Positions 8,770 to 40,858 of a stretch of 64,000 nt of DNA are shown piece by piece. The stretch lies in IMG/VR virus record IMGVR_UViG_3300033074_002003; one strand, written 5' to 3'. The notes below the pieces were generated by a model. It saw nothing but the letters and a program-made list of their open reading frames with translations, did no database searches and had not been told where the DNA came from. Within the stretch, counting starts at the first letter, position 1. Every line of letters starts with the position of its first letter. Both the position numbers and the translations under genes were made by a program. This stretch comes from a virus.

Positions 8770-8776
8770 CGAAAAT

Positions 8777-11340: not shown

Positions 11341-11360
11341 TAGCCGTCAGAAGAAGTAGA

Positions 11361-11387: not shown

Positions 11388-11388
11388 A

Positions 11389-13323: not shown

Positions 13324-13325
13324 GT

Positions 13326-13333
13326 GATACTTA
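13326..13333 (+). promoter_or_regulatory. ATACTTA motif instance (GATACTTA), only 7 nt upstream of the 13340 ATG.
   Basis: Recurring motif; see findings. Confidence 0.25.
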
Positions 13334-13339
13334 CAGTGC

Positions 13340-14664: not shown

Positions 14665-14714
14665 AGATATGTCGATGCTTAGACTGTGATACTACATTTG
14701 TAGTAGATGTGTCA

Positions 14715-14722
14715 CATACTTA
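14715..14722 (+). promoter_or_regulatory. ATACTTA motif instance (CATACTTA), 6 nt upstream of the ATG at 14728.
   Basis: Recurring motif; see findings. Confidence 0.25.
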
Positions 14723-14727
14723 ACAGC

Positions 14728-15912
14728 ATGACGCGATTCGTAGACGTGATTAGACCCACGCCATTTTCATTGTTTGACACAGATCCCGACTTCCAGCGTG
14801 AGGCCGATGGGATGGTGACATTCGTCAAGCGAAAGCTCGGAGACGACATCCTCCCAGTTGAGCTCACGTCACGACAGATCTATGCCGCATTTGAAGAGGC
14901 GACCGTAGAGTACGGTGCCACAGTGAACATGTTTCAGATTCGCTCGCAGCTCGCGAGCCTGCTCGGATCGCCCACGGGTAGTTCTGGCAGCATGACAAAC
15001 AAGTACCCGCACAACTCGCTCGATTTTCTGATGAGGCTTGCAGAGCCCTACATCCAAGAGACGGGGTTCGGTGGGTCGCAACCCGTTGACCTGTGCTACA
15101 TAGACATCGAAAATGGCAGGCAGGATTACGATCTCTACAGGGAACTGAAGATCGGTTCTGGCTCTATGAGCGGTTCTCTGTACTTTCCGAACCTTGCGAG
15201 CGGTAGTCACTCGCGTCTGAAAGTCTGGGAGGTGTTTCACTTTGAGCCGATGGCCGCGCAGCACTTCCTGCTGAACGCCTCGAATGTGACAAACTTCTTG
15301 GCGAACGAGTTCAACTACGAATCGTACGTGAACTCGACAGTGTTCTATGTCCTGCCCATCTTTGAAGACGTTCTGCGCCGCGGCATGATGGAAGCAGCTG
15401 CTCGCGTCAGGCGATCAAACTACAGCTACCAGATCACGGGTGGCAAAATTAGAATTTTCCCTGTCCCGACAGAGACGCGCGTAGCTCACACGCTCTGGAT
15501 GCGCGTCTCACCAAGCGTGACGGACGCTCTTCGCCCGCCATTTCAGGACGATTCGGTGTACGGTGTCTCCGGATTCTCAAACGCTCCGTTCTCCAACATT
15601 CCCTACTCGACCGTGAACGACGTGGGCCGGTGGTGGATACGTGAGATGACGTTCGCCATTGCACAGGAGATCCTGGGTAGGGTGAGGTCGAAGTTCAAGA
15701 GCCTACCCATTCCAAACAACGAAGTCGTGCTCAATGGTGAAGAACTCGTCACCCAGGCCCGTGAGAAGCAGGACAAACTGCGAGACACCCTGCGAGAGGA
15801 CCTCGACAAGCTCACTCTTCCCTCTCTGATAAATCAAGAGGCAGACAAGGCTGAAGCCATGTTGAGGATGCTCAGGGTAATTCCTATGCGGTCGCCGATC
15901 ATTATCGGATGA
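14728..15912 (+). CDS. Virion structural protein in the gp13/14/15-like position before the sheath. The track ORF begins at 14707; the start was chosen at MTRFVDV.
   Basis: An ORF of about 394 aa in the structural block. No recognisable catalytic motifs. Confidence 0.55.
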   Translation: MTRFVDVIRPTPFSLFDTDPDFQREADGMVTFVKRKLGDDILPVELTSRQIYAAFEEATVEYGATVNMFQIRSQLASLLGSPTGSSGSMTNKYPHNSLDFLMRLAEPYIQETGFGGSQPVDLCYIDIENGRQDYDLYRELKIGSGSMSGSLYFPNLASGSHSRLKVWEVFHFEPMAAQHFLLNASNVTNFLANEFNYESYVNSTVFYVLPIFEDVLRRGMMEAAARVRRSNYSYQITGGKIRIFPVPTETRVAHTLWMRVSPSVTDALRPPFQDDSVYGVSGFSNAPFSNIPYSTVNDVGRWWIREMTFAIAQEILGRVRSKFKSLPIPNNEVVLNGEELVTQAREKQDKLRDTLREDLDKLTLPSLINQEADKAEAMLRMLRVIPMRSPIIIG

Positions 15913-15923
15913 AAGGGTGACTC

Positions 15924-16580
15924 ATGCCGAGACTATTCGCTTCTGAAAAAGACCTCGCTTTCGTAGCTGATATCACGAAAGAACTGATCAAAGACGTCAT
16001 CGGACAGACAATAAGGTACTTTCACATCTCTGTCACAAATACACCCGCGAATAATCTGTACGGCGAAGCCCGCGACAAGGTGTTCGATGAGCCAGTCGTG
16101 CTTGAAGTTCTGGCGGACAATCCCAAGAACGAGACACACACGGATAGGTTTGGTACGGAAGACGACTACACGATGGAGCTCTACATTCAGTGGAGAGACC
16201 TAGTAGACAAGGGCGTCACGGTCGATGTGGGCGACTTCTACCAGTACGGTGAAAACTTCTACGAGATTCACCAGGTGAACATCATCAAGACGATGTTTGG
16301 TCAGGTGGAGCACAGGGACGGCGTTCGCGTCTGGGCAAAGAAGGCCCGCGACGGGCAGTTCAGAGAAGATCTCGTTGGACCGACAGATATCAGTGACGAA
16401 AACGGAACACAGAAAGAGTTTGTGCAGCAGAGGGGTCTGCCACAGAATCGCCTCGGCGAAACCGGAGACAAGCGCGAACTTCAGGAGCGTGGGTTGCTGG
16501 AACCGCCCCTGTCTGGCGCGAAAGAGGTCGGTCCCCGAGGGAATACGGGCACGGGCCCATCGTTCTACTCTGACGATTGA
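15924..16580 (+). CDS. Virion structural protein, candidate neck or tail-completion protein.
   Basis: A 218-aa ORF tightly packed between structural genes. Confidence 0.5.
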   Translation: MPRLFASEKDLAFVADITKELIKDVIGQTIRYFHISVTNTPANNLYGEARDKVFDEPVVLEVLADNPKNETHTDRFGTEDDYTMELYIQWRDLVDKGVTVDVGDFYQYGENFYEIHQVNIIKTMFGQVEHRDGVRVWAKKARDGQFREDLVGPTDISDENGTQKEFVQQRGLPQNRLGETGDKRELQERGLLEPPLSGAKEVGPRGNTGTGPSFYSDD

Positions 16581-16592
16581 TAGTTATCGAGC

Positions 16593-17777
16593 ATGACTGT
16601 TAGGTGGGGCGCGGGCGACGAGCGTGGCATTCCGTCCGGATATGCCGGCGTAGATGTGCCCGGCGACATCTCGATCCCATCGTGCGGCATTGAAGACGTA
16701 GATCGCGCTCTCTTTCAGACATTTGACAGCGAGATAGGATTTCAGGTCAGTCGGACGACTGACGGTGTCAGGTCGCTCGCAAAGATACCGGTGTTCCTCG
16801 GCGTCGGCGAAAAGTGGGCGCTGAATAAGAAGAGGAAGGGTATCCGCGACAAGTCCGGGACATTGATCCTTCCCCTGATCTCTATTGTCCGTACCTCTAT
16901 CGATCAGAAGGTCGAACAGGACCAGCTGGGCAGGGGCATCAACCAAGCCGTCGGAGACCTCGTTGTGAAGAGGAGAATTTCTTCTGTCGATCGAGAGTAC
17001 CAGAACTTGGTGAACAAGAATTTGATCCCGAACCAAGACAACCTTCCCACGGGTTCTCTGGGATCGCCCGTTTCTTCTGGCAGAGAGGTGGGACTGGATC
17101 GCTGGAATTCGGACGTCCTGAAGGGAAACTTGCTGGCGAACGATCCCAATCGAGCTGTGTGGGAAATCATCACGATTCCGACGCCGCAGTTCTACACGTC
17201 AAACTACGAAGTCACGTTCTGGGCACAGTACACAGAGCAGATGAACGAGATGATCGAGAGGTTGATGGCATCGATGCTACCTCAGCTTCCCGCGCTGAAG
17301 CTGACGACGCCGAAAGGTTACTGGTTTGTGGCGTACCTCAACGGAGACTTCAAATCAACGGCGAACATCGACGACCTGAACGAAAATGAGCGCGTCATGA
17401 AGTACGTGTTCACGCTCAGTGTCAGAGCGTACACAGTCGCGCCGTCACTTCCTGGGATGCCTTCTCCCGTCAGGCGATACGTCTCTTCTCCTGAGGTTTC
17501 ATTTGACGTATCTGGAGAGGTGCAGGGTGCGGGCGGCAGCGAGGTGCAGTCTCCCACGATCGATGGCGCAGACGATCCAACACTCGGATACACACTAGAC
17601 GGTGAGGTCACTCCGCGGCCCACGGCGCAGAGAGGTTCATACTCTGTGCGCGTGACAAAGAACCCTTTCACAAAGGGAAGCAGGGCCGAATACGTAAAAG
17701 TGGTGTCGGTCAATGCCAAGTCAGGGGAGTCGATAGTAAGATCGATCAACCCAGGAATCGAAATTGAACTTGACTGA
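16593..17777 (+). CDS. Virion structural protein, candidate sheath-terminator or neck protein.
   Basis: A 394-aa ORF immediately upstream of the sheath genes. Confidence 0.5.
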   Translation: MTVRWGAGDERGIPSGYAGVDVPGDISIPSCGIEDVDRALFQTFDSEIGFQVSRTTDGVRSLAKIPVFLGVGEKWALNKKRKGIRDKSGTLILPLISIVRTSIDQKVEQDQLGRGINQAVGDLVVKRRISSVDREYQNLVNKNLIPNQDNLPTGSLGSPVSSGREVGLDRWNSDVLKGNLLANDPNRAVWEIITIPTPQFYTSNYEVTFWAQYTEQMNEMIERLMASMLPQLPALKLTTPKGYWFVAYLNGDFKSTANIDDLNENERVMKYVFTLSVRAYTVAPSLPGMPSPVRRYVSSPEVSFDVSGEVQGAGGSEVQSPTIDGADDPTLGYTLDGEVTPRPTAQRGSYSVRVTKNPFTKGSRAEYVKVVSVNAKSGESIVRSINPGIEIELD

Positions 17778-17795
17778 GAACTGTGGGTAAGTCTC

Positions 17796-17803
17796 CATAC
17801 TTA
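17796..17803 (+). promoter_or_regulatory. ATACTTA motif instance (CATACTTA), 45 nt upstream of the sheath 1 start.
   Basis: Recurring motif; see findings. Confidence 0.3.
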
Positions 17804-17847
17804 TGGATACCCGTTTCTGACCCAACACACTGAAGGAGAGAGCACCG

Positions 17848-20800
17848 ATGGCAGAACAGACATTTCGTTCGCCAGGATTTTACGAGTCTGAGATTGATGC
17901 CGGCAACAGTGCAGCTACCCCAACAGGTACTCCAGCTGGTGTCGTTGGCACATCAGACAAGGGTCCTGCGTTCGTTCCGATTACTGTCGGTTCGTTTTCC
18001 GACTTCAAGGCGAAGTTCGGCGGTCTCAATCCCAAGAAGTACGGTCCTTACGCTGTCAAGTCATTTCTCGATAGCAAGAATGCCTGTACGTTCGTCCGCG
18101 TCCTCGGCGCCGGTGCTAACAACCTGGAGTCTGAGATTACGACGACAGAGCTCACCGGAAAGGTAAAGAACGCCGGATTCGTCATTGCTGGCACCGCGGC
18201 AAATGCGGGTGTCGGTGGAACTGACGGTCGTTACAAGGGTGCGGTTCAGCTTCTTACCGCGCGTCACACGCTTCAGACAAATGAGGCGTTCGGCATCCCG
18301 ATGTTCAGTGACTCTGACGCATACCTCGGTGCTTCGTCAGTTCACCTCGTCCGCGCGATGGTCCTTCTCGCTTCTGGCACGAGGATGATGGTTGTCAACG
18401 GTGATGAGCCCGTGACAGGAGTGTTCGGTTCTCTGGTACCCGATGACTACGCGACGGTTGCCTCTGGCAAGTTCAAGCTCATCCTCTCTTCGACGGACGG
18501 AACTGCATTCGGTGTTGCTGATGGCCTCTCTGGCCTCAAAGTTTACACCGCGTCGCTCGATCCCTCGAGCACCGATTACATCGGCAAGCTGCTCAACTCT
18601 GATCCCGATCGCTTTGCTACCGATCAACACCTTCTCTACGCAGATTTTGCCGTCGACAATGAGGTCGCGACAGCTACTGCAGTCGGCGTTGCATCAGGCT
18701 CTTCGAACACATCACAGACGTCCGGAGACACTTCGCTAGCATTCCGCGAGGCTTTCGGTCGCTTCGACACACGCTACACGACTCCGCGTACGACGATGTT
18801 CATCTCGCAGCCGTTCGGAAAGGTCGAGTATGACCTCTTCTACTTCGAGACACTGGACGACGGTGAGTACGCAAATACCCTCTACAAGGTTTCGATCTCT
18901 AACGTAAGAGCGTCTTCCGATCCGTCGAGCCCATGGGGCACGTTCCAAGTGCTCATTCGTTCGTTCGATGATACGGACGCAAATCCGAAGGTCCTCGAGC
19001 GCTTCCCAAACCTGACGCTCGACCCGAACTCTGATCGCTACATTGCGAAGGTGATCGGTGACCGTGAAGTTAGCTACAACTTCGACGCGACCGACATTGC
19101 AGAGCGCCGCCTTGTCGTCTCCGGCAAGTACAAGAACGCTTCGCGCTACTGCCGTGTTATCGTAAGTGATGCCGTTCGCGATGGGCTTGTCCCGCAGAAC
19201 GTGTTGCCTTTCGGCTTCAGGGGCATTCCGGTTCTGAAGACAAATGACAACCTTACCGATGTCGGTTCTTCGAACCCGCGTCGCCTTGGCATGTCTTTCG
19301 GTCTGAACGTGACATCGTCACTCTCTGGTAGCATCGTGCCGCCCGTTCCCTTCCGACTGAAGGTCACAAAGGGAGACGTTGGCACCTCGGGCTTCACAGG
19401 AAATCCCGGTGCAACGGAGATTGTCAACGCTTCATACTACTGGGGCGTGAAATTCGAGAGGAACACGACCCCTCTCAACCCGAACCCTGCGACAGAGAAG
19501 AACACTCTCATCGGATCGTTTGCGAAGTTCCTTGGAATTTCGAAGCTCGATACGCTTCTCACCGGTTCTGGTGCGGATACACAGAACAACAACAAGTTCA
19601 CGCTTGCAAACGTCGCGTTCTTGCAGCAGGCCGTGTCTGAGCTCACGGGTTCTCCTGTTCAGCACATGCGTGATGTTGCGTACATCAGGAACGCGCGCCC
19701 AGATCCGACATCCTACACCGTGAACGACGGTGTGATCACAAGAAGGATCACGTTCGCGACTCTTGCTGCACAGACGTCGTCCGTCGAGTTCAACAGGTTC
19801 ACGGCGTACGCGAAGTTCACGAACTTCTTCTACGGTGGGTTCGATGGTGTGAACATCCTCGACAGGAACGCTCGTCGAATGAACGACAAGGCGAGTTCCT
19901 TCTCGTCGTATGGTGGAGCAGAGTCTTCGTACGTGTCGCCGGGCCTCAGCAGCAACGTAGGTGGAGCGGGCGTGTCAAACAACGTCGTCTACTCCTACAA
20001 GATTGCCGCAACGATCATGACAGATCCGATGACGGTGAACACAAACATCCTCGCTCTTCCTGGCATCAGGGAGTCGTACATCACGGATTACGTCGCCGAG
20101 AGGGCAAAAGAGTACGGTCTTGCACTGTATGTCCTCGATATCCCGTCCTACGACGAGGACAACAACCGCCTGTACGATGATTCTGTCGCGCGTCCGAGCG
20201 TCGACAAGACGGCGAAGAACTTCGAGTCGAGGGCCATCGACAACAGCTACCTCACGACATACTGGCCGGATGTCTCGCTCGATGACACCGACAATAAGCG
20301 TAGGGTCACGACTCCCGCTTCTGTCGCTGCTCTTGCGGCTCTCGGTTTCAATGACAAGGTCGGCTACCCGTGGTTCGCACCCGCTGGCTTCAATCGCGCG
20401 GCACTTGACTTCGTGAAGAATGTTGGCGTGAGACTGTCAAACTCTGACAGGGATCGCCTGCAGGACGCGCGCATCAACCCGATCGCATCGTTCCCGAAAG
20501 AGGGATTCGTCATCTACGGTCAGAAGACGCTTCAGCAGATGCGAAGCGCCCTCGACAGGGTAAACGTGAGGCGCCTCGTCCTCGAGGTGAAGAGGCTCGT
20601 TGTCGAGCGTGCTCGCAAGCTCGTCTTCGAGAACGGTCTCCCAGAAGAGCGCGACAATTTCGTGAAGGACGTTACGACACAACTCGGCCTCATTCAGACA
20701 CAGGCCGGTCTCGAGTCGTTCAGCGTCACAATGGACGACACGAACAACACACAGGCTGACTTGGACGATCACAGGGTGAACGGCTCAATCGTTCTCGTTC

Positions 20801-20868
20801 CGACGAAGACGATCGAGTTCATCAGCATTGACTTTGTGATCGCCAACGGGCAGGTCACGTTCGTCTGA
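17848..20868 (+). CDS. Tail sheath protein, gp18-like, paralog 1.
   Basis: The N-terminus TGTPAGVVGTSDKGPAFVPITVGSFSDFKAKFG matches T4 gp18 STGTAALAGKFQWGPAF...FG. The conserved C-terminal domain is present (NPIASFP...GQKTL...LDRVNVRRL...VPTKTIEFISIDF). Confidence 0.85.
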   Translation: MAEQTFRSPGFYESEIDAGNSAATPTGTPAGVVGTSDKGPAFVPITVGSFSDFKAKFGGLNPKKYGPYAVKSFLDSKNACTFVRVLGAGANNLESEITTTELTGKVKNAGFVIAGTAANAGVGGTDGRYKGAVQLLTARHTLQTNEAFGIPMFSDSDAYLGASSVHLVRAMVLLASGTRMMVVNGDEPVTGVFGSLVPDDYATVASGKFKLILSSTDGTAFGVADGLSGLKVYTASLDPSSTDYIGKLLNSDPDRFATDQHLLYADFAVDNEVATATAVGVASGSSNTSQTSGDTSLAFREAFGRFDTRYTTPRTTMFISQPFGKVEYDLFYFETLDDGEYANTLYKVSISNVRASSDPSSPWGTFQVLIRSFDDTDANPKVLERFPNLTLDPNSDRYIAKVIGDREVSYNFDATDIAERRLVVSGKYKNASRYCRVIVSDAVRDGLVPQNVLPFGFRGIPVLKTNDNLTDVGSSNPRRLGMSFGLNVTSSLSGSIVPPVPFRLKVTKGDVGTSGFTGNPGATEIVNASYYWGVKFERNTTPLNPNPATEKNTLIGSFAKFLGISKLDTLLTGSGADTQNNNKFTLANVAFLQQAVSELTGSPVQHMRDVAYIRNARPDPTSYTVNDGVITRRITFATLAAQTSSVEFNRFTAYAKFTNFFYGGFDGVNILDRNARRMNDKASSFSSYGGAESSYVSPGLSSNVGGAGVSNNVVYSYKIAATIMTDPMTVNTNILALPGIRESYITDYVAERAKEYGLALYVLDIPSYDEDNNRLYDDSVARPSVDKTAKNFESRAIDNSYLTTYWPDVSLDDTDNKRRVTTPASVAALAALGFNDKVGYPWFAPAGFNRAALDFVKNVGVRLSNSDRDRLQDARINPIASFPKEGFVIYGQKTLQQMRSALDRVNVRRLVLEVKRLVVERARKLVFENGLPEERDNFVKDVTTQLGLIQTQAGLESFSVTMDDTNNTQADLDDHRVNGSIVLVPTKTIEFISIDFVIANGQVTFV

Positions 20869-20880
20869 TTACGCAAAGGC

Positions 20881-20888
20881 CGATACTT
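20881..20888 (+). promoter_or_regulatory. ATACTTA motif instance (GATACTTAGACAC), 25 nt upstream of the sheath 2 start.
   Basis: Recurring motif; see findings. Confidence 0.3.
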
Positions 20889-20912
20889 AGACACGATTAG
20901 GGAGTGACATAA

Positions 20913-23900
20913 ATGGCAGGGTCAAAATTCAGCAGTGCCGGTGTTTCCACGACGGAGATCGATCGGTCCGGTCCTCGGACAGTCGAACCGACAGGTACGC
21001 CAGCAGGCGTCATCGGTACCTCTCTGAAGGGCCCAGCCTTCGTTCCTGTGACTGTCGCTGTGGACGATGACTTCTACTCTGTCTTCGGAAAGACTGATGG
21101 AAAGAAGTTCGGACCTCTCGCGATGGTTGAGTGGCTACGTAACTCTCGCGCAGGTACATACCTTCGCGTCCTCGGTGCTGGTAAAGCACAGCGCAGGCTC
21201 ACGAACGGAGCGAACGTTGGCAGCGTCGAAGGTGCGGGGTTCGTTGTGGGAGCTCAGCTTCCAGACTCCAGCACGGGTGCTCTGACAAACAACCCGTACG
21301 CAAACCTCAACGGTCCCCCAGGAAGGATGTACTTCTTGGGCGCGCTCATGTCGGAGTCGCTGAACTCTACGGTGTTCTCGGACGCGGGACTTCAGGGTCC
21401 TGGTGGTAAGGCACTTCACACAACGGCATCAATCCCGATCGTTCGCGGTGTTGTCATGGCCGCTTCTGGCGTTCTCCTGAGGATGTCTTCGTCTCGCGAT
21501 GGCACAAACTCTGCGCCTGCTTCTACACTTGCTGGTACAGACGCCGGTTCGAACGGTCAGATCATTGGCGCGGTGAAGCTCCTCGAGTCGGGTGTTTCGA
21601 AGCAGGAGTTCGTCATTCTCTTGAACGGACACAAGGGAACTGATGCATCATACCCGAACGCCATCACGGCGTCCTTCGATGTGACAGCACCAAACTACTT
21701 CGGTAACGTCCTCAACAAAGATCCCTACAAGATTGCGCAGGCCGGTCACTACCTCTACGCACAGTACGACATTCACGGCGCGCAGGCGGTCGTGACGGGT
21801 ACTGGAATCGTTTCGACTGCTCTCTCCGCTGGCGGTGGTATCGCTACTGGCTTCGAGGAAGCGGCGTTCATCACGTCGGGTTCTGCCGCCCGCAATACGG
21901 GTGCGGCGAACATCCCCAACTACGAAAACTGGGAGGATCGCTACGACACGGGTAAGACGCCGTGGGTGATCTCGCAGAGGTTCGGTGGTTCACCGGCAAA
22001 CCTCTTCAGATTCTGGATGTTTGACGACGGTGCTGACGTCGCAAACAAGATCAAGATCTCGATCGAGAGCATCACGCCCTCGACAGATCCTACGAACAAG
22101 TACGGCACATTCGATGTCGTGATTCGTAGGTGGGAAGACCGCGACACAGACGCGAAGATCCTCGAGTCGTACAGGGGCGTCAACCTCGATCCTTCGTCTG
22201 ACAAGTACATCGCGAAGGCGATCGGTGATCAGAACATCTACTACGACTGGGAACACGTTGACGACGCGCAGAAGCTCGTTGTCCTCGGCAACTTCCCACG
22301 CGTTTCGAACTACGTTCGCGTAGAGGTAGACTCGCAGGTCGACTCCACGGAGATGGACGCGACAGCTCTTCCGATGGGCTTCCGCGGCGCTCCGCACCTC
22401 ATCACTTCTGGTTCTATGCCGCTCACGAAGGGGTCAGATACGGCCTTCGTCTCGACAGCAACGGGATACGTCGGAAGGGCGGTCCAACCACCGGTTCCCA
22501 TGAGGACAAACATCACAGCGGGATCTGGTGCCTCGCGTGTCGTGAACTCGTCGTACTACTGGGGTGTTCAGTTCGAGCAGGTATCGAACCTCGACCTCCC
22601 GAACGCGTCGTCTGTCCAGAACAAGACGGTCACTAACCTCACGAAGTACTTCCCAAACTTCCAGACGGTAAACGCAAATGTTCTCGCCGAGGACAACTCG
22701 GGCGTCGCAGAGTCGACGACCATGGGTGTGCTCGATGTCGATAGGTTCAACAATAACCTGTTCTCTCTCGAGAACCTCCAGGTTGTCACGAACTCCGCGG
22801 GCTACGCAGATGCGTCCCAGTGGGCATCTGCGGCATACGTCAGGAACGGCGCGATCGCGGCGTCCGATTCGGCGAAGACCCGTGCGTTCAGGCTCACAGA
22901 CCTCACACAGCAGTCGAACAGGAAGTTCGCAAAGTTCTCGCTCTTCGTACAGGGTGGGTTTAACGGCGTGAACATCTTTGACAGGGACGCAGCTGAGCTC
23001 ACGAACAACGCAATTGCGTACGAGATGGCGAACTCCTCACGCGGACTCACCGATGGTCCAACGGTGAAGACGTACCGCAAGGCGATCGATATCATGAAGA
23101 GCACGACAGATGTCGATGTGAAGCTCCTCGTGGCTCCTGGCATCAGGAACCCGATTGTCACCGACTACATGATCAGCGCCGTCGAGGATCGCTTCGACGC
23201 CCTCTACATCATGGACATCGAGGAGAACGACACACACAACCTCCTCGTGACATCCTCGGGACAGACACCGAACGTTCAGTACACCGCGGCTCGCCTCGCG
23301 GACCGCGCACTGAACACGTCCTTCGCGGCAGCTTACTACCCCGACGTCATCATGACAGACCCGAACACACTGACGAACGTCGTTGTGCCACCCTCTGTCG
23401 CGGTGCTCGGAGCGTTCGCTGTGAACGACTCGCTCGCACACCCGTGGTTCGCGCCCGCTGGCTTCGCTCGTGGAGCGCTTGCATCGACGCTCGAGGCGAC
23501 GATCAAGCTCAGCAAGGACAACATGGATACGCTGTCCGACGTCGACATCAACCCGATCGTCGCGTTCCCGGGTTCTTCGCCCACGGGTGCGGATCCAAAG
23601 CCGGGCGGCGTCGTGGTGTGGGGACAGAAGACGCTGTACTCGGTCGCCTCGTCGCTTGACAGGGTGAACGTGCGTCGACTCCTCATCGAGATCCGCAGGA
23701 TGGTCAGGGAGATCTCCAACCTGATCGTGTTCGAGCCCAACCGCGAGGCGACGCTGTCCCGCTTCTCAAACCTCGTGAACCCTCGCCTCGCGAAGGTTCA
23801 GGTGCAGGGCGGTGTCACGAAGTTCCTCGTGAAGATCGATACATCGACCACGACACAGAACGACATCGACAACAACACAATTCGCGGTCAGATCTTCGTC

Positions 23901-23963
23901 ATTCCGACGAAGACGATCGAGACGGTCTCCATCGACTTCATCGTGTCAAATCCTGGCACCTGA
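20913..23963 (+). CDS. Tail sheath protein, gp18-like, paralog 2.
   Basis: The same N-terminal motifs (TGTPAGVIGTSLKGPAFVPVTV) and C-terminal motifs (NPIVAFP...WGQKTL...LDRVNVRRL...IPTKTIETVSIDF) as paralog 1. Confidence 0.85.
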   Translation: MAGSKFSSAGVSTTEIDRSGPRTVEPTGTPAGVIGTSLKGPAFVPVTVAVDDDFYSVFGKTDGKKFGPLAMVEWLRNSRAGTYLRVLGAGKAQRRLTNGANVGSVEGAGFVVGAQLPDSSTGALTNNPYANLNGPPGRMYFLGALMSESLNSTVFSDAGLQGPGGKALHTTASIPIVRGVVMAASGVLLRMSSSRDGTNSAPASTLAGTDAGSNGQIIGAVKLLESGVSKQEFVILLNGHKGTDASYPNAITASFDVTAPNYFGNVLNKDPYKIAQAGHYLYAQYDIHGAQAVVTGTGIVSTALSAGGGIATGFEEAAFITSGSAARNTGAANIPNYENWEDRYDTGKTPWVISQRFGGSPANLFRFWMFDDGADVANKIKISIESITPSTDPTNKYGTFDVVIRRWEDRDTDAKILESYRGVNLDPSSDKYIAKAIGDQNIYYDWEHVDDAQKLVVLGNFPRVSNYVRVEVDSQVDSTEMDATALPMGFRGAPHLITSGSMPLTKGSDTAFVSTATGYVGRAVQPPVPMRTNITAGSGASRVVNSSYYWGVQFEQVSNLDLPNASSVQNKTVTNLTKYFPNFQTVNANVLAEDNSGVAESTTMGVLDVDRFNNNLFSLENLQVVTNSAGYADASQWASAAYVRNGAIAASDSAKTRAFRLTDLTQQSNRKFAKFSLFVQGGFNGVNIFDRDAAELTNNAIAYEMANSSRGLTDGPTVKTYRKAIDIMKSTTDVDVKLLVAPGIRNPIVTDYMISAVEDRFDALYIMDIEENDTHNLLVTSSGQTPNVQYTAARLADRALNTSFAAAYYPDVIMTDPNTLTNVVVPPSVAVLGAFAVNDSLAHPWFAPAGFARGALASTLEATIKLSKDNMDTLSDVDINPIVAFPGSSPTGADPKPGGVVVWGQKTLYSVASSLDRVNVRRLLIEIRRMVREISNLIVFEPNREATLSRFSNLVNPRLAKVQVQGGVTKFLVKIDTSTTTQNDIDNNTIRGQIFVIPTKTIETVSIDFIVSNPGT

Positions 23964-24096
23964 TCTTGGGGCGATGTAGATGAGAGGCTGCGAATTCCCT
24001 AGTAATGACGAGCTCCTCTTCGATGATGAAGATCTCGAGGAGGTTGCTCCGTCACACCGGGTCGGGAAGACGAAAAAGAAACACGAGGGAGCGACA

Positions 24097-24531
24097 ATGA
24101 AGATCAAGTGGAATAGTTTGCGACGGCTCATTAGGGAAGAGATCAAGCGTAGTGGGCTCCTCACAGAGGTTGCCTGCCCGGTGTGCGGCACCGAGGGCGC
24201 GTACGTGGGACTCAACAACGTAGAGTGCACAAACAAAAAGTGCAAGCACTACGTACCGTCAGAGGCTGCTCCCGAGGCATCCGCAAAGAGCATCAAATTT
24301 CACCCTTCAAACGATCCATACGTAGTGAATCACTTGATGCCTTACTTTGAGGCGGGAGAAATCACACCATGTCCTGGTGCTGATTATTACGCAACGGGTT
24401 ACGGTTCTCTTGGTGCCTACAACAGTGAGGGCACGTGTGTCGGACAATGGCAGTGTGATACCGAAATACCCGATTGTGAAGCCAACGTCCAGCGGAGTCC
24501 CGATTACAGCGGACAGTGGGGACCCCCGTGA
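24097..24531 (+). CDS. Leader-family small protein 1 with a zinc-ribbon (CPVCGTEGAYVGLNNVEC...KCKHY). The start was chosen at the internal Met.
   Basis: The N-terminus is MKIKWNSLRRLIREEIKRSG. A gaggga RBS lies upstream. Confidence 0.55.
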   Translation: MKIKWNSLRRLIREEIKRSGLLTEVACPVCGTEGAYVGLNNVECTNKKCKHYVPSEAAPEASAKSIKFHPSNDPYVVNHLMPYFEAGEITPCPGADYYATGYGSLGAYNSEGTCVGQWQCDTEIPDCEANVQRSPDYSGQWGPP

Positions 24532-24917
24532 GAATCAGACTCTCAGCTCTGCGACGGCTCATCAAAGAGGAACTGTCACTCTTGACAGAGTCCCGGTGTC
24601 CCGTCTGTGGAACTGAGGGTGCGTACGTAGGACTGAATGACGTAGAGTGTGTCAATCCACGCTGTACGCACTACAAGCGTCCAGAGAATGTCATTGGCAC
24701 TGCTGGTTTCAAACCGGGCGACATCGTTAGATACGATGGGTCATACGACGGTGATGTGCCAGAATTTGGCATGGTTGACGAGGTCGAGGGAAACCTTCTC
24801 ATTGTCACGTCGCTTGACAATCCTGGAGAAGAGCGGGAATGGGACGCCGAGACGTGTCAACTTGTCCCGGAAGACGCGTATCCCGGAAAAAAACCAAGAA
24901 AGAAAAATCGGCCATGA
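24516..24917 (+). CDS. Leader-family small protein 2, a zinc-ribbon paralog of protein 1.
   Basis: The N-terminus is (V)RIRLSALRRLIKEELSLLT with a GTG start. The zinc-ribbon reads CPVCGTEGAYVGLNDVECVNPRCTHY. The gene overlaps the end of the previous gene. Confidence 0.55.
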   Translation: MGTPVRIRLSALRRLIKEELSLLTESRCPVCGTEGAYVGLNDVECVNPRCTHYKRPENVIGTAGFKPGDIVRYDGSYDGDVPEFGMVDEVEGNLLIVTSLDNPGEEREWDAETCQLVPEDAYPGKKPRKKNRP

Positions 24918-25297
24918 GAATCAGACTTAGCCAACTGCGTCAGATTATCAGAGAAGAACTGTCTGCCGTTGTTCCGCCGGGTGACGACTGGGAAGAGATC
25001 ATGGCGAGAGTCAAGAAATACCCAGGTCGCGGCGGTGAGCGGTACGAGGCGGGAACGGGCGGAGATCCGAGCCTGGGCCGCGGACAGCTAGAGCGTGACA
25101 ATCCCGAGGCCTTCGCCGCTCTTGAAGACATGTTCGGTGACACATCTAGCATTAAGGTTTGGGAAGAGATGGGCGCGCTGCACGCAACGGCTCCGGGCGG
25201 GCGGGGTGCGGGTTCTCTTCTCCTCTGGGGTGCGGACGGTCAGTGGCACAGGGCGTACGATCGCAGGAAGCGCGTCCGCGCGTCGGTTGATGGCTAA
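24914..25297 (+). CDS. Leader-family small protein 3.
   Basis: The N-terminus is MRIRLSQLRQIIREELSAVV. The ATGA overlap with the upstream stop suggests translational coupling. Confidence 0.5.
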   Translation: MRIRLSQLRQIIREELSAVVPPGDDWEEIMARVKKYPGRGGERYEAGTGGDPSLGRGQLERDNPEAFAALEDMFGDTSSIKVWEEMGALHATAPGGRGAGSLLLWGADGQWHRAYDRRKRVRASVDG

Positions 25298-25317
25298 ACT
25301 AAGAAAAGTGTAGGACA

Positions 25318-25605
25318 ATGAAAATCAAACTCAGCAAACTGCGTCAAATCATCAGGGAGGAGCTGTCGCCGCCCGAGGGGACGACCCTCGATTCGCGCTC
25401 GCTCGCCGAAGCCACGCTAGAAGACGCGGACGTGCAGGAGTCGATTCGCGATCTAGCGATGAGCGTTACAAGTGCGCTGGGTGAGCTCATGGGACGCAGG
25501 GACATGGGTGAGCTTCACATACACTTTGCCAACGAGTTCTCTGATGCTGTCATCGAGATGATCAATGACGATCTCTTGCAGTTCTACGCAGAGAACCCGG
25601 AGTGA
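25318..25605 (+). CDS. Leader-family small protein 4.
   Basis: The N-terminus is MKIKLSKLRQIIREELSPPE. Confidence 0.55.
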   Translation: MKIKLSKLRQIIREELSPPEGTTLDSRSLAEATLEDADVQESIRDLAMSVTSALGELMGRRDMGELHIHFANEFSDAVIEMINDDLLQFYAENPE

Positions 25606-25607: not shown

Positions 25608-26771
25608 TCAGTGCGGACGTGACTTTCGTAGGTTCATCCAATCTGATTCCCACATGGTAACGACGACATAGCCTGCTTCTCGCAGGATACTTTCGCGGTC
25701 TAGCGTATATTGCAAGTGTTGTGACATTGGTGCGCACGACATGTGATTGATTTTGTCGGGTGCCTGTGTCTTCGGATTGCCGTGCCAATAGTCGCCGTAG
25801 TACTCGTAGATCGTGCTGTTGATGAGCCCGTCAACGTTGAAGCGTCGACCTTCTACATGAACCCACCGATTTCGACATTCGGGTGGAATGCTGAGAGAGT
25901 CGAGCCATTCTGTTTCGCCCTTTGAGATAAGAGGCGAACAGATGTCACATCGATCGTTCAACAAACCGACGTAGTCTCGAAGCTTTTCGTTTCCGCAACT
26001 GTTACATCTCATCAGCAATGTCGCGTAGCACGCAGCCACATAGTCGGTTTCACTTCCAACAAATGTCAAGTTTTTGAGCTTTGAAAACGATTCAGAGATC
26101 TGTGACCAGGGGATCCTAATGAGATTGCGATGTCTCTCCATATCGCGACTGTTTGCCCACGTTATCAAGCGAGGCTCTGTCTCTTTCGTTTTTCCCTTTG
26201 ACCAAGCTTGACGCTTCCCAGACGCAAAATCGTCTCGTTGCTGTTGTGCCCACTTAGCAACGCGTTCGTCTGTCTCTTCTGTAAGTCCTTTGTGCCACGC
26301 ATTCCGTTCGCCACTAGCGTACTGCTCTTTGAACATTTCACTCATTGCGGCAACACGTTCGTCTGTCTCCTTTGTTTTGCCTTTTGACCAGATCGTGATT
26401 TCACCAGCGTCCATAAGCGTTTTCCGCGTCTTGCTCACTTTTTTTCCCATTGCCGCGAGGCGTGGATCAGTGTCTTTCGTTTTGCCCTTCCATGGAACTC
26501 CGTGACCATTCACGTACTCACGCTCAAATCCGCGCGCCCACCCATACCATCGCACGTACTTTCCACACCCACACTTGCAAATGGGCCTAGCACCGCCGCA
26601 TTTCGTATCGACGTAGACTTCGATCGGATCAGTAATCCCGTGAGTCGTGCCGTAATGTTCGGTAATTTTTTCGTTCATCCCGGCGCGAGCTGTCACAAAA
26701 TCGCACTTGGCACACTTGATTGGGTTTCTTGCCGACGTCTTCATTTTGTGATGATACAACGCTCTTTTCAC
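25608..26771 (-). CDS. Homing-endonuclease-like protein with a C2H2-like zinc finger, a CKCGCG motif, four NUMOD3-like repeats (GKTKETD/E...) and a Vsr-like nuclease.
   Basis: The N-terminus carries CAKCDF...EHYGTTH and CKCGCGKYV. Repeats read WKGKTKDTDPRLAAM and SKGKTKETDERVAAM. The C-terminus reads EYYGDYWHGNP...VVVTMWESDW. Confidence 0.75.
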   Translation of the reverse strand: MKRALYHHKMKTSARNPIKCAKCDFVTARAGMNEKITEHYGTTHGITDPIEVYVDTKCGGARPICKCGCGKYVRWYGWARGFEREYVNGHGVPWKGKTKDTDPRLAAMGKKVSKTRKTLMDAGEITIWSKGKTKETDERVAAMSEMFKEQYASGERNAWHKGLTEETDERVAKWAQQQRDDFASGKRQAWSKGKTKETEPRLITWANSRDMERHRNLIRIPWSQISESFSKLKNLTFVGSETDYVAACYATLLMRCNSCGNEKLRDYVGLLNDRCDICSPLISKGETEWLDSLSIPPECRNRWVHVEGRRFNVDGLINSTIYEYYGDYWHGNPKTQAPDKINHMSCAPMSQHLQYTLDRESILREAGYVVVTMWESDWMNLRKSRPH

Positions 26772-26856: not shown

Positions 26857-27357
26857 TTGGATGCGAAAATCGCTGAAGTTCTTGACGTTACAACTCTCCT
26901 TCCAAATAAGTACGAGCCAAAGCGAAAAGGGCGATGGTTGCTTGCGATAGAGGGTATTGACGCCTTCCTCTGCAAGACAGCCCAGAGGCCGCAGATCCAG
27001 ACAGAGCGCCTCGAGATCCCGTTCATGAACTCGCGTCGGTACATCGCGGGCAAGACGACTTTTCAGGAGATGTCAGTGACGCTCATGGACCCAGTCGCTC
27101 CCTCGGGCGCCCAGCAGGTCATGGAGTGGCTGCGCCTGCACTTCGAGTCTGTCTCGGGACGTGCGGGTTACGCAGACTTCTACAAGCGCGACGTGCAGCT
27201 CAAGTTGACAGACCCCACGGGAACGGTCGTCGAACTATGGGACGTGAAAGGCGCTTTCATAACCAACGTCAACTTCGGAGAGCTTACGTACGAAGACCAA
27301 AATGCCATCGAGATTCAGCTGACGTTGTCTTACGACAACGCTGTACTTCAGTTCTGA
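26857..27357 (+). CDS. Tail tube protein, T4 gp19-like.
   Basis: CKTAQRP...EIPFMNSRRYIAGKTTFQEMSVTLMD aligns with T4 gp19 CKATALP...KIPVGFMNRKINVAGDRTFDDWTVTVMND. The C-terminus GAFITNVNFGELTYEDQNAIEIQLTLSYD aligns with GLWPTNVGELQLDWDSNNEIQTFEVTLALDY. Confidence 0.8.
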   Translation: MDAKIAEVLDVTTLLPNKYEPKRKGRWLLAIEGIDAFLCKTAQRPQIQTERLEIPFMNSRRYIAGKTTFQEMSVTLMDPVAPSGAQQVMEWLRLHFESVSGRAGYADFYKRDVQLKLTDPTGTVVELWDVKGAFITNVNFGELTYEDQNAIEIQLTLSYDNAVLQF

Positions 27358-27383
27358 TCTCGACTCTGGATCGTTGCACCGCT

Positions 27384-27420
27384 CGAAAGGCCCTACGATG
27401 GGCCTTTCGACGTTTAATTT
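27384..27420 (+). terminator. Rho-independent terminator (CGAAAGGCCC-tacgat-GGGCCTTTCG, then ACGTTTAATTTT) after the tube gene.
   Basis: A 10-bp perfect stem and a T-rich tail lie immediately downstream of the tube gene stop. Confidence 0.55.
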
Positions 27421-27436
27421 TGTTCTTGTTGGAACG

Positions 27437-36592: not shown

Positions 36593-39500
36593 GTGGCAGA
36601 CGACAAGTCACAGCTAAAAGTAGCAGAACAGCTAGCGAAGGTCCTGGAACAGCAGGCTGCTAGGCTTGAGGGCATTACTCGCGAGATCAACGCGCAGTAC
36701 GAGATCACCAAGAAGATCATCGAGACTGTGAAGTCTGCTGGTGATCTAGAGGATCCGCTACAGAAGGCAAAGGACGTAAAGGGCGCGATCAAGGAGATCT
36801 CCGAGGAGACAAGCAAGGGTAAGGACCTAGCGACACAGCATGGCGAAGCGCTGAAGGACGCCATGACCAAGTCAGAGAATTCTTCTCTGTCATTCCTCAA
36901 GGCACTACAGAAAGTCGGCGGACAATTTCCTGTGATGAAGACCGCTGCCATTGCAGCGACGCACGGCATTGTTGAGGGATTCCGAGCGGCGGGTGCTATC
37001 ACGAGCTCTTTTTTGAAGACGACAGCGTCAATCGTCACGGGTATCGGAAAGATCGGTATCGCGATCCTCTCGATCCCGTTCAAGATCTTCCAGGCGTTGA
37101 TCGACAAGGCTGAGTCGGGTGGCGGTGGAAATGAGCTCGCAGCGGCATACGAGAAGGTCAGGAAACAGTTCGGTGACTTCCGACAGGATGCCGCACACAA
37201 CGTCATCAAGACTGCCCACGACATAGACAAGCAGTTCAAGGAGACGGGCCTTAACACGTTCATGGTCTTCGGCAACCTCGCGCAGAGACTCGAAGAGGTG
37301 AACAAGATCGCGACAGCGATGGGCGCGACATGGGACGTTCTTGGCAAAGAGTTCGCAGAGAACTCTGGTCACCTCCTCGCGTACCAGAAGGGTCTTGGTG
37401 TCGCTGAAGAGAACATGAAGGATTTCGCGCAGGCTGCGATTTCCTCTGGGAAGCCAATGCAGGAGGTGATGCGCGAAACGGCATCGCTGTCTCTTTCAAT
37501 GCAGAAGCAGTTTGGCGGTTCTGCGAAGCTCTACTCCCGCGACATGAGCAAGATGATCAACGATGTGAAGCACTTCGGCGGCGTCTCGCAGAAGATCATG
37601 GTTGAGGTCGCCGTCTACACACGAAAGCTGGGCCTCGAGACAGAGAAGCTTCTTGGGATGCTTGACAAGTTCGATACGTTCGATGAGGCGGCTCAGAGCG
37701 CCGCGAAGCTCGCGCAGACATACGGCGCGCAGGTCGACGCATTCAAGCTCATGACGGCTGAATCTCCCGTCGAGCAGCTCGACATGATCCGAAAGGCGAT
37801 GTTCGAGGCGGGCAAGACAGCAGAGACGATGGACAGGAAGGACTTCAAGTACATCGCTTCGCTTACAGCGATGGATGAGGCTTCCGTCAGAGCGGCTCTG
37901 TCCTCAAAGAACATGGGTGTGTCCCTCGACAAGGTGAAAGAGGGATCTGCGAAAGCAGAGAAGCAGCAACTGTCACAGGCAGAGGCGATGGCAAAGCTCG
38001 CGGGTGCCATCGAGCGCATGACGTTCAGCGGACAGGAGAAGTTCGGCGGGTTCATCAAAGCGCTCATCAAGGGATTCAACGACGGCATCGAGTGGTCGCA
38101 AGACTTCATGAAGGTGATGTTCAGCATCCGGCAGGACATGCGCATCATGTACTGGGCGGGCAGAGAGCTCGGTAAGGTGTTCGTTGACTCTTTCCCGGGA
38201 GTAAAAGACATCCTGCAGGGCATCGGGGAGATATTCGATCCAAAAAAGTTCCAGAAGCTTGCGAACGGAATTGTGGAGGTTTTCAAGAAGTTCTTCACAG
38301 ACATGTCTGACAGCCCAAAAACGGCGCTGCCGGAGCTTATGAAGAACCTCAAAGCAAAATTCTTTGACTTCTTCAACTCTGAATCCGCTGCGGGATCGAA
38401 GGTCATTTCTGGTTTTCGCAAGTTCCTCATGGCTCTTGGGCAGATCGCGGGCGGTGTAACGAAGTTCATGCTAGAGAGCCTGCGAGACGGGTTCAAACTC
38501 ATCACAGATCTCATGTCTGGGAAGGGTGCCGCTCAGATCGGGGCTGGAGCGTCGGGCGCGAAGAAGTTCATGATCGAGCTCTTCACACCTATCTTTGAGG
38601 CGATTAGGGACGTCTGGCCCTCTCTAAAAGACGCATTTGTCACGATGATTGAGACAGCCTGGGACAAGATCAAGAAATCTGGTGTCATTGAGAGGGCCTG
38701 GGAAGGTCTCAAGAAGTACATGCTTGTTGTCGGCATGGGTGCGATGGGTGCAGGAGCCGCGAAAGGAATTGGGGCGCTGATCCTCGGTGGGCTCGCGAAG
38801 GGTGTCGGTGGTGCTGTCGCGACGGGTATGGCTGGACTGATCGGAAATGCAGTCAAGAATGCTGGCACAAAAGCCGCAACCGCGGGCGGAACGAACGTTC
38901 TTGGGTCTGCGGCAAAGACACTCGGCGATAAACCCGCTGAAAATGCTTCAAGCCTCACTGGCGCGGCGAAAAAACTAGATGAGGGCGGGAAGTCTGGGAT
39001 CAACTGGAAGGGTATTGGCGGGTTCTTGCTCGGCCTTGCAGGTGTTATTGCTGTCGGTCTCGCGTCTCTGTGGGGTGCGATTAAGATCTTTGGCGATGTA
39101 CCCGTAGACAAGATTCTCAAGGGTCTACTCGTGATCGGAGGCGTGGCGACAGCGCTGCTGCCCGCAGCCGGCGCAGTTGCCCTCATTGGAATCGCGGGAA
39201 GGACGATAGACCCAAAGAGCGCTGCAGTTGGCGTCGGAGCGATTGCCCTAGCTGTGGGCGCGATGTCTCTCGCTATCGGTGCGATTTATGGTGCATTCTC
39301 TCTTCTGAAAGTCGATTTTGGTAGGCTCAAAGATTTCACGTCGACAATCCTCGAGATGTCGAAGGTGTTCATTCTTACAGGTGGCGTCGTTGCTGAGGCG
39401 ATGATAATTGGTGCTGTTATCACAGCAACGGGTGGTGTCGGCGGTGTTGCGGCTCTTGCTGGATTTACTGCGATTGGACTTGGTGTTGCTGCGATGGCAA

Positions 39501-40858
39501 CGTCAGTTACTGGCATCATTAAAGCACTCGCGACGGTTCCTTTCGCGGCCGACATGAAAGACAAGGTCGATGCCTTTGTCAAAGTATTGAGTGCGACAAC
39601 AGAGTTCGCTAAAGTGTACAGCGACATTCTCACTGCTTCACGACCGACATTCATGCAGCTCGTGACGGGAAATTCAAAGTCTGCCAAAGACGATCTTGAC
39701 GCAGTGACGAAATTCGTCAGTACGATGATCGGGCCCCCGGGTGGAATGATCGGTCTCGTCACGACGCTCATGGACGCAATCACGAAGTTGAGTGGAGAAG
39801 ACCAGACTGCACGTAAGGCCGCCGAAACGATGGCCGGTCTCCTTTCCGCGCTCGCGACGATGGCAGGTGCTATCGCACCCCCGAAAGAACTGTTTAGCAA
39901 CGGTTTCAAACTCATCGAGACTGGTGACGCAACACGCAACGCCTTGCAGGGTTCGCAAGACTATGTCTCTACAATGACGTCATCGATTCAATCGTTGATG
40001 GACAAGGTCAAGACATTCATAACGTTCATGAAAACAGGAGGAATCTCCGAAAAGGACCTACAAACAGCTGCTCTGATAGGCCCGCTGTTCCAAGCAATAG
40101 CACAGATCACTGTTGCTTTGAAGCCTACACCCGAACTGATTAATGCTGCGAAAGACGCAAAGGGCGACGTTCAAGGGAACGTAATGGTCCAAATTGGCGA
40201 CCTCATCAGAGCGCAGGGTAACCAGGTGAAAAGCGTCGTAGAATCGATGGCCAATAGCATCATGCCCGCTGCTAAGTCGCTCGGTGGGCTCGACAAAGGG
40301 CAGATCGAAAGTTTGAAAGTCGTCGCGCCGCTGATCGACAGCCTCTTCAAAGCTGTTTCAAATATCACAGGTGCATTCACGACAATCTTGTTGTCAAAGA
40401 ACCTGAACACAGGCATCGACACGAAGAACAACCTCATCAAGGTCATGATGAGCAGCGTCGGGACAATGATCCAGAGCGTGGCCACTGAACTGCCGAGCAT
40501 CTTTACGTCTCTTTCGGCGATGCCGAAGATCGCCGAGAAGGGTGCCATCGAACAGACGAAGACGTCGCTGAAGGTTGTGGGTGACATGATCGCGTCGCTC
40601 AACTCGCTCACTTCGATGCTCTCTGACGGAAACCTCACGAAGCTAGACGTCGCGCCGAAGCTCGAGGCAATGGCGAAGAAGGTCGGCCTCGGTGGCAGCG
40701 GAACCTATACCATCACACACAAACCCATTACGATAACGCTGAACCTCGATATCCACATGGACGCGAAGCAGATCGAGTACGGCATCATCAACCGCAACGG
40801 CCTCGGACAGAAAGTCGTCGTTGTCTACGACGAAGAGAAGCGCAAGAACAACGTATGA
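36593..40858 (+). CDS. Tail tape measure protein.
   Basis: A 1421-aa, alpha-helical, A/G/K-rich protein with periodic motifs and C-terminal hydrophobic G/A-rich segments. It sits in the canonical position after the sheath, tube and chaperone genes. Confidence 0.8.
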   Translation: MADDKSQLKVAEQLAKVLEQQAARLEGITREINAQYEITKKIIETVKSAGDLEDPLQKAKDVKGAIKEISEETSKGKDLATQHGEALKDAMTKSENSSLSFLKALQKVGGQFPVMKTAAIAATHGIVEGFRAAGAITSSFLKTTASIVTGIGKIGIAILSIPFKIFQALIDKAESGGGGNELAAAYEKVRKQFGDFRQDAAHNVIKTAHDIDKQFKETGLNTFMVFGNLAQRLEEVNKIATAMGATWDVLGKEFAENSGHLLAYQKGLGVAEENMKDFAQAAISSGKPMQEVMRETASLSLSMQKQFGGSAKLYSRDMSKMINDVKHFGGVSQKIMVEVAVYTRKLGLETEKLLGMLDKFDTFDEAAQSAAKLAQTYGAQVDAFKLMTAESPVEQLDMIRKAMFEAGKTAETMDRKDFKYIASLTAMDEASVRAALSSKNMGVSLDKVKEGSAKAEKQQLSQAEAMAKLAGAIERMTFSGQEKFGGFIKALIKGFNDGIEWSQDFMKVMFSIRQDMRIMYWAGRELGKVFVDSFPGVKDILQGIGEIFDPKKFQKLANGIVEVFKKFFTDMSDSPKTALPELMKNLKAKFFDFFNSESAAGSKVISGFRKFLMALGQIAGGVTKFMLESLRDGFKLITDLMSGKGAAQIGAGASGAKKFMIELFTPIFEAIRDVWPSLKDAFVTMIETAWDKIKKSGVIERAWEGLKKYMLVVGMGAMGAGAAKGIGALILGGLAKGVGGAVATGMAGLIGNAVKNAGTKAATAGGTNVLGSAAKTLGDKPAENASSLTGAAKKLDEGGKSGINWKGIGGFLLGLAGVIAVGLASLWGAIKIFGDVPVDKILKGLLVIGGVATALLPAAGAVALIGIAGRTIDPKSAAVGVGAIALAVGAMSLAIGAIYGAFSLLKVDFGRLKDFTSTILEMSKVFILTGGVVAEAMIIGAVITATGGVGGVAALAGFTAIGLGVAAMATSVTGIIKALATVPFAADMKDKVDAFVKVLSATTEFAKVYSDILTASRPTFMQLVTGNSKSAKDDLDAVTKFVSTMIGPPGGMIGLVTTLMDAITKLSGEDQTARKAAETMAGLLSALATMAGAIAPPKELFSNGFKLIETGDATRNALQGSQDYVSTMTSSIQSLMDKVKTFITFMKTGGISEKDLQTAALIGPLFQAIAQITVALKPTPELINAAKDAKGDVQGNVMVQIGDLIRAQGNQVKSVVESMANSIMPAAKSLGGLDKGQIESLKVVAPLIDSLFKAVSNITGAFTTILLSKNLNTGIDTKNNLIKVMMSSVGTMIQSVATELPSIFTSLSAMPKIAEKGAIEQTKTSLKVVGDMIASLNSLTSMLSDGNLTKLDVAPKLEAMAKKVGLGGSGTYTITHKPITITLNLDIHMDAKQIEYGIINRNGLGQKVVVVYDEEKRKNNV

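Follow-up and report, generated by a model that had tools for sequence, protein, structure and literature searches.

A contractile tail is usually pictured as a polymer of a single sheath protein, and the only heteromeric sheaths to have been resolved are those of bacterial injection devices, namely the Photorhabdus virulence cassette (PVC) and the Serratia antifeeding prophage (AFP). The sheath of PlPVC1 begins with an initiator layer of Pvc4, continues with alternating Pvc2 and Pvc3 and ends with Pvc2 only, with conserved handshakes joining all three proteins (PMC12546770). Pvc3 differs by an outer knob that is thought to dock fibres (PMC12546770). Some phage genomes likewise encode two sheath copies (PMC9230969), and a heteromeric sheath has been hinted at for the Pseudomonas jumbo phage PaBG, whose sheath paralogs gp76 and gp213 are both listed in virion bands identified by mass spectrometry after sodium dodecyl sulphate-polyacrylamide gel electrophoresis (PMC7412058). 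Here we analyse a tandem pair of gp18-like tail sheath genes, sheath A and sheath B, in a 64,000-nucleotide viral sequence (IMG/VR record IMGVR_UViG_3300033074_002003; the whole stretch is referred to as the window), which comes from an uncultured jumbo myovirus.

The pair was first proposed in a prediction made from the sequence of the window, which started from the premise that contractile tails normally use a single sheath species. That premise needs a qualifier, since jumbo phages with two sheaths are documented, both PaBG and its 'Lupandier' group (PMC7412058) and in further work (PMC9230969). Our literature search found neither a phage tail structure resolved with two sheath species nor an account of the pair in this clade. 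What is new here is an independent, much larger and strictly conserved pair, tandem, ~1000 residues per protein, occasionally triplicated, and universal across a big uncultured clade.

Two full-length sheath paralogs in tandem

Sheath A (17848..20868, + strand; 1006 aa) and sheath B (20913..23963, + strand; 1016 aa) are separated by 44 nt. The original prediction of full-length sheath genes duplicated in tandem is borne out at these exact coordinates, and both genes are intact; the pairwise alignment that it had proposed as a check runs colinearly from end to end at 33% identity (BLASTP, E=2e-164), so that the two proteins are full-length paralogs with a similarity far beyond chance. Both match the PHROG 'tail sheath' family phrog_23 (1.9e-49 for sheath A, 1.2e-49 for sheath B) and both match T4 gp18 at the profile level. 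With profiles built from 42 orthologs per paralog, residues 810-1002 of sheath A align with gp18 459-651 (E=8.8e-34), and sheath B aligns with the C-terminal ~190 residues of gp18 (within ~456-651; E=1.9e-28). The same profiles match many other solved sheaths, with Afp2/3 and Pvc2/3/4 at E=1e-5 to 1e-12. By homology, both proteins are assigned to the gp18-like contractile tail sheath proteins (PF04984 / PF17482; PHROG 23). They had been put at about 50% longer than gp18 each, which agrees with the measured 1.53-1.54 times the length of gp18 (659 aa). No third sheath copy was found in the 64-kb window.

The family is easily missed in routine annotation. Single-sequence Pfam scores fall under the gathering threshold for both proteins (PF04984, 17.4 versus 31.4 bits for sheath A; PF17482, 26.0 versus 26.9 bits for sheath B), and for this reason public sources leave most sheath A orthologs unannotated, as 'hypothetical protein'. 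Precomputed PF04984 or PF17482 matches are present on many orthologs, and several sheath B orthologs carry the JGI label 'phage tail sheath protein FI'.

Similarity between the paralogs is greatest in the N-terminal ~80 and C-terminal ~200 residues and lowest mid-protein (A131-220, A267-308); the extra ~350 residues relative to gp18 sit between the conserved termini. The sheath signatures quoted in the original prediction were found at both ends of both proteins: the N-terminal motif reads PTGTPAGVVGTSDKGPAFVP in sheath A and PTGTPAGVIGTSLKGPAFVP in sheath B, and the C-terminal motifs INPI..FP...GQKTL...LDRVNVRRL...PTKTIE..SIDF are common to the two, with a ~10-residue insertion ahead of GQKTL in sheath B only. 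Across the 42 orthologs of each paralog these terminal motifs are invariant or nearly so. The invariant positions of sheath A include P25, G27, P29, G39, A41, F42, V43, P44, T46, P985, T986, E990 and F996, and those of sheath B include P26, G28, A31, G32, G35, T36, G40, A42, P45, T47, P998, E1003 and F1009. By homology, the terminal motifs would correspond to the handshake strands that join neighbouring subunits, and the disabling changes in these regions that had been named as evidence against a working pair are present in neither paralog. Eighteen alignment columns are at least 90% conserved within both paralogs yet hold different residues, e.g. A140H/B146M, A607M/B637W, A756Y/B760R, A966-967 NN / B979-980 TT, A978N/B991R and A984V/B997Q, and further blocks are specific to one paralog (B218-227, B300-308, B580-593 and A689-697). 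This pattern fits a common contractile core combined with putative paralog-specific functions. AlphaFold2 models from the 42-sequence alignments were poor (mean pLDDT 56.5 for sheath A and 44.3 for sheath B); the top Foldseek matches of the low-confidence sheath A model were T4 gp18, the Klebsiella KP1 sheath and the R2 pyocin sheath (E=2.6e-6 to 5.5e-4), with TM-scores of just 0.1-0.2.

Each gene was also predicted to have its own copy of one upstream motif and its own ribosome-binding site, and this held in modified form. A promoter-like motif, ATACTTAT, lies 51 nt upstream of the sheath A start (17797..17804, +), followed by the ribosome-binding site AGGAGAGAG (17834..17842, +); sheath B is preceded at 30 nt by ATACTTAG (20883..20890, +) and by the ribosome-binding site GGGAG (20900..20904, +). 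The exact ATACTTAG motif thus stands before sheath B only, but the two motifs share the core ATA(C/G)TTA and both ribosome-binding sites are of the GGAG type. ATACTTA occurs six times in the window, always on the + strand, and five of these copies sit 13-51 nt upstream of a start codon. Amongst relatives, ATA[CG]TTA is present within 60 nt upstream of sheath A in 50 of 61 distinct ortholog upstream regions (median -40) and upstream of sheath B in 37 of 50 (median -29), whereas its background density is 0.25 per kb (+ strand) and 0.03 per kb (- strand); GGAG-like ribosome-binding sites are found in 60/61 and 44/50 of these regions, respectively. We infer that the ATA(C/G)TTA core acts as a promoter.

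The extended, strand-specific form (G/C/A)ATA(C/G)TTA(G/T) is seen throughout the window, e.g. at 6640, 13327, 17797, 20883 and 30283, with related sites at 645 and 41055, and structural genes start 13-51 nt downstream. Judging by sequence, it is probably the late promoter of this phage group, recalling the late TATAAATA element of T4.

A hairpin search found no terminator-like site between sheath A and sheath B or directly after sheath B. The first strong candidate downstream of the pair is an intrinsic-terminator-like hairpin with an 11-bp stem (27383..27410, +), 3' of the gp19-like tail tube gene (26857..27357, +; phrog_4542 tail tube, 6.4e-29). Because each sheath gene has a promoter-like motif and a ribosome-binding site, with no terminator between them, the two look co-expressed.

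Retention and selection of the pair in an uncultured jumbo phage clade

Metagenomic homologs of the two proteins are abundant, with more than 2100 per paralog at E<1e-10 (more than 2200 for sheath A); the best 120 clusters per paralog are all ~1000 aa long and 56-77% identical to the query, on contigs of up to 357 kb. A scan of IMG/VR yielded sheath A orthologs at 44-60% identity in 80 loci, and pairing was counted in those loci with at least 1.2 kb of sequence after sheath A. In 62/62 of the counted loci a B-type gene comes immediately after sheath A, in the same orientation and at a median distance of ~45-50 bp, and the A-B pair is also found in two NCBI-deposited relatives (L007 and L008). 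The clade comprises uncultured jumbo phages of ~300-350 kb, represented by contigs of 300-357 kb that are phage genomes; L007 carries a gp23 capsid gene, and an identical sheath A protein is encoded on contigs of 305,889 bp (ENA) and 329,329 bp. One sheath B ortholog (P0223), on a 300-kb contig, is deposited at NCBI within a metagenome-assembled genome named 'Patescibacteria group bacterium', and this contig is probably a jumbo phage that was mis-binned into a bacterial assembly.

A megablast search of positions 17000-25000 gave no DNA-level match to deposited phages, and there is consequently no close cultured relative to lend annotation. The cellular genome representatives scanned with sheath B yielded one weak, unrelated match; this near-absence rules out an origin from a prophage or from a bacterial extracellular contractile injection system (eCIS).

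Eight loci have three full-length sheath genes in tandem (L015, L019, L020, L022, L058, L060, L068 and L081), those of L020, for example, at 8001-11033, 11089-14157 and 14363-17425. Trees place the third copies as later duplications of sheath B, and the dN/dS (the ratio of non-synonymous to synonymous substitution rates) of a third copy, 0.049, indicates purifying selection.

Neighbour-joining trees over 804 columns with 200 bootstraps recovered the monophyly of sheath A (100%), of sheath B (100%) and of the two together (95%), to the exclusion of the single sheath of the Microcystis phage Mel-JY01, both copies of the uncultured huge phage LR756508.1 and both PaBG sheaths. The sheath A and sheath B subtrees are reciprocally monophyletic, and their internal branching is broadly congruent. 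Since A, B and A+B are each monophyletic, the duplication is older than the diversification of the clade, specific to it, and independent of that in PaBG: one ancient tandem duplication took place in the clade ancestor, and sheath A still directly precedes sheath B in every descendant sampled. The two paralogs have also evolved at closely matched rates, with a mean ortholog identity of 0.554 for sheath A and 0.529 for sheath B (r=0.85 across 528 genome pairs), while the A-B identity within one genome is 0.27-0.41. In 11 close locus pairs, dN/dS (Nei-Gojobori) ranged from 0.034 to 0.128 for sheath A and from 0.045 to 0.136 for sheath B. Neither paralog is decaying or relaxed, and equally strong purifying selection acts on both.

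Possible arrangements of two sheath proteins in one tail

On the evidence of their sequences, the two genes are functional sheath paralogs: they are intact, co-located, apparently co-expressed and equally constrained, and they share the window with a single tube gene. A phmmer search of the window for a second tube gene, which might pair with the second sheath as PaBG's could, found none. Equal purifying selection and retention argue that both paralogs are required, and this requirement therefore points to a heteromeric sheath. By analogy with known multi-sheath devices, we regard a layer-differentiated sheath formed by the co-assembly of A and B as the best reading and a reasonably probable one, if far from secure; among its forms we favour a regular mixture, alternating or otherwise, with the two proteins in comparable amounts. 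Both proteins would be made late in infection and would polymerise on a single tail tube, joining one contractile lattice via the N- and C-terminal motifs that each has kept (handshake strands by homology). They would occupy distinct, regular positions, and the unit would most likely be an entire hexameric layer of one paralog, with the two kinds alternating or grouped in blocks as for Pvc2, Pvc3 and Pvc4 in the PVC particle. By analogy with gp18, the divergent middle (A131-220, A267-308 and the paralog-specific blocks) would form outward-facing domains, so that two layer types would present different outer surfaces, perhaps docking fibres or decoration proteins or tuning contraction, around a common inner contractile core.

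A bolder form of this proposal is an obligate two-component lattice (three-component in some lineages), whose hexameric layers, each made of a single paralog, would alternate over the full ~200-nm length of the tail; we put it forward tentatively, as a possibility on which we would not rely. If true, such a lattice would have a doubled axial repeat and two chemically distinct outer surfaces. In that case a heteromeric sheath would be described for the first time in a bona fide phage, with an origin separate from those in eCIS and PaBG.

Several considerations weigh against a heteromeric sheath. The virion presence, stoichiometry and arrangement of sheath A and sheath B are argued by analogy, the phage being uncultured and known from its genes, and the handshake strands, the tube-attachment helix and the 'outer' divergent regions are placed by homology, the AlphaFold models being poor. 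Conservation of the terminal motifs is a general trait of sheath proteins and is not by itself proof of A-B binding. Moreover, equal selection and equal size would be expected just as much if one paralog made only a few specialised layers; Pvc4 is a 6-copy initiator (PMC12546770), yet it is close to Pvc2 and Pvc3 in size, as judged by PDB chain lengths.

The alternative that survives best follows from this last point. One paralog may form the bulk of the sheath and the other a few layers by the baseplate, as a Pvc4-like initiator, or by the neck, as a collar or terminator interface, at ~6-12 copies per virion. The precedent of Pvc4, which plays the initiator role in PVC at a size similar to that of the bulk sheath proteins, speaks for such a division, as do several of the 18 differing conserved columns, which fall in the C-terminal domain (those at A966-967, A978 and A984 and their sheath B counterparts) and would fit a different partner, e.g. 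a sheath initiator or terminator. Conversely, each gene has its own conserved promoter-like motif and strong ribosome-binding site, evolutionary rates and dN/dS are nearly identical in the two, and PaBG, the one phage for which there are data, has both of its paralogs listed among the identified virion gel bands. phiKZ, moreover, starts its sheath with a small gp25-like protein (the gp62 sheath initiator) rather than with a full sheath paralog, and T4 likewise initiates its sheath with a small gp25-like protein. We consider a bulk and a specialist paralog unlikely on balance, though the sequence data separate this arrangement poorly from the heteromeric sheath that we prefer.

It is improbable, in our estimation, that sheath A and sheath B form alternative homotypic sheaths, unmixed, so that there would be virions of two types or a choice set by conditions or host, e.g. 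to evade a sheath-sensing defence. Each paralog appears to keep every element for polymerising alone, the separate promoter-like motifs could permit differential use, and a third copy in some lineages is what diversifying pressure would be expected to produce. However, with a gap of ~45 nt, no terminator and the same type of motif before both genes, co-expression is the simplest explanation of the locus, and the strict one-to-one retention across deep divergence, the congruent trees and the low dN/dS point to two different, required functions. Nor does this history resemble the turnover, loss and positive selection by which an arms race would be recognised. Least credible of all is that one paralog has left the sheath for an outer wrap or decoration, or for an intracellular or assembly scaffold: some jumbo phages do surround their sheath with further structures, e.g. 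a coiled outer one in phage G and tail hairs in Y3 and CBB (PMC13282480), and A and B differ strongly in their middle domains, but both keep under strong constraint the terminal motifs and the inner C-terminal domain homologous to gp18 459-651, which decoration would not need.

Tail-module context and relation to known sheath systems

The order of genes around the pair is T4-like. The neck and tail-completion region (14707..17777, +) opens with a gp13-like adaptor gene (14707..15912), which matches the phrog_211 head-tail adaptor family, and PF26809 (Phage_T4_gp13) matches the identical gene of an ENA contig, L004. Two open reading frames (ORFs) of 218 and 394 aa follow, for which family searches gave no match, and their position in the T4 order makes them putative gp14/gp15 equivalents. 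Then come sheath A, sheath B, an array of small ORFs, an HNH-like gene on the - strand, the tube gene (26857), a further HNH-like gene, the baseplate hub (35159) and a tape-measure-like protein (36863), with replication genes further downstream. PF06841 (Phage_T4_gp19) gives a weak match on the L004 gene that is identical to the tube gene of the window.

The tape-measure-like protein (36863..40858, +; 1331 aa) is so designated from composition and position only: its translation is helical, with a Gly/Ala-rich hydrophobic core, and family searches returned no match. With T4 as the yardstick (~1.5 Å per residue), a protein of this length would correspond to a tail of ~200 nm. Mel-JY01 has a 1348-aa gene in the corresponding position, whose product shows weak similarity (E=0.001) to the 1331-aa protein. 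The suggestion in the original prediction that two sheaths fit a very long tape measure is unsupported, as tail length sets the number of layers and not the number of sheath species, and the single-sheath Mel-JY01 has a gene of about this length, weakly similar, in the same place, a parallel that is suggestive at most. The 981-aa ORF at 31810 was considered as the tape measure and rejected, being a beta-rich repeat protein. This protein (31810-34755) has four or five domain repeats ending GDGW(F/W) and no family match, and it may serve in the tail as a fibre or in carbohydrate binding.

Between sheath B and the tube gene lie four small ORFs (23980-25605; 183, 133, ~128 and 95 aa) that share the N-terminal sequence M(K/R)I(K/R)LS.LR.(I/L)I(R/K)EE(L/I). 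The first two also share the zinc-ribbon-like motif CPVCGTEGAYVGLN(N/D)VEC.N..C.HY. L004, otherwise identical, lacks one of the ORFs and ~172 bp of sequence at this array, which therefore varies between near-identical genomes. HNH or homing-endonuclease-like paralogs are found at 25608-26771 (-), 27398-29095 (+), 13681-14664 (-) and 10087-10953 (+), and one such gene has a Tn7 TnsA-like N domain. The tube gene is flanked by two of the paralogs (phrog_559 and phrog_3339; mutual BLASTP E=5e-31). The relatives L007 and L008 have other genes where the window has HNH-like genes, and the latter look like mobile insertions into the tail module. A ribonucleotide reductase large subunit (55491-59141; 1216 aa) has HNH endonuclease matches inside the enzyme at ~413-532, a placement suggestive of an intein or of a homing endonuclease insertion. 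Upstream of the tail module, 7249-13323 holds unusual accessory genes, with Pfam matches taken from the identical ENA contig: a patatin-like phospholipase, an RNA ligase (~9103-10104, +), HSP20 (11389-11730, -), a Thg1-like tRNA-His guanylyltransferase (~11808-12548) and a metallophosphatase (12526-13323).

Sheath A and sheath B resemble the single sheaths of T4 (gp18) and cyanophages in their homologous C-terminal core (gp18 459-651), in the G..AG..G...GPAF type of N-terminal motif and in the order of neck, sheath and tube. Their best cultured relative, at 33% identity, is the sheath of Mel-JY01, which has one 812-aa sheath gene with the tube gene directly after it. A more distant relative of A and B, the uncultured 484-kb huge phage LR756508.1 (L002), has two 824-aa sheath genes (4068-6542 and 7557-10031) that lie ~1 kb apart. 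These copies are not sisters, one grouping with Mel-JY01 (91.5% bootstrap) and the other standing weakly as sister to A+B (62%), and the LR756508.1 pair therefore has a different history.

PaBG (Baikalvirus, 'Lupandier' group) is, like the members of the present clade, a jumbo myovirus; gene duplication gave it two full sheath paralogs as well, and these have diverged to a similar degree (~38% identity in PaBG, 33-36% here). The duplication itself was independent, as the PaBG pair split from all other sequences in 100% of replicates. The PaBG sheaths are also shorter (528 and 547 aa) and encoded ~117 kb apart, whereas those described here are ~1000 aa, strictly tandem, sometimes triplicated and accompanied by a single tube gene. 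In PaBG, gp76 adjoins two tube paralogs, gp74 and gp75 (L089, 662-3340), and gp213 adjoins the tail structural protein gp214 (L003, 7173-9471); PaBG may thus duplicate tube components besides the sheath, unlike the window with its one tube gene. Sheath duplication has arisen repeatedly and independently in large phages, and a large, environmentally common clade has kept two, sometimes three, sheath paralogs since before it diversified. The pair offers a defined target for structural virologists and a basis for better annotation of sheath A orthologs.

The organization of the locus resembles that of eCIS such as Photorhabdus PVC (Pvc2/3/4) and Serratia AFP (Afp2/3/4), which likewise have two or three tandem sheath paralogs in one locus. 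Their sheath proteins are of 354-451 aa, and they are tailocin-like bacterial devices with eCIS-specific genes, whereas the locus described here is that of a phage, with a gp13-like adaptor, a gp19-like tube and replication genes, and with gp23 in L007. By analogy, the locus may work like an eCIS sheath though it is not a member of the eCIS.

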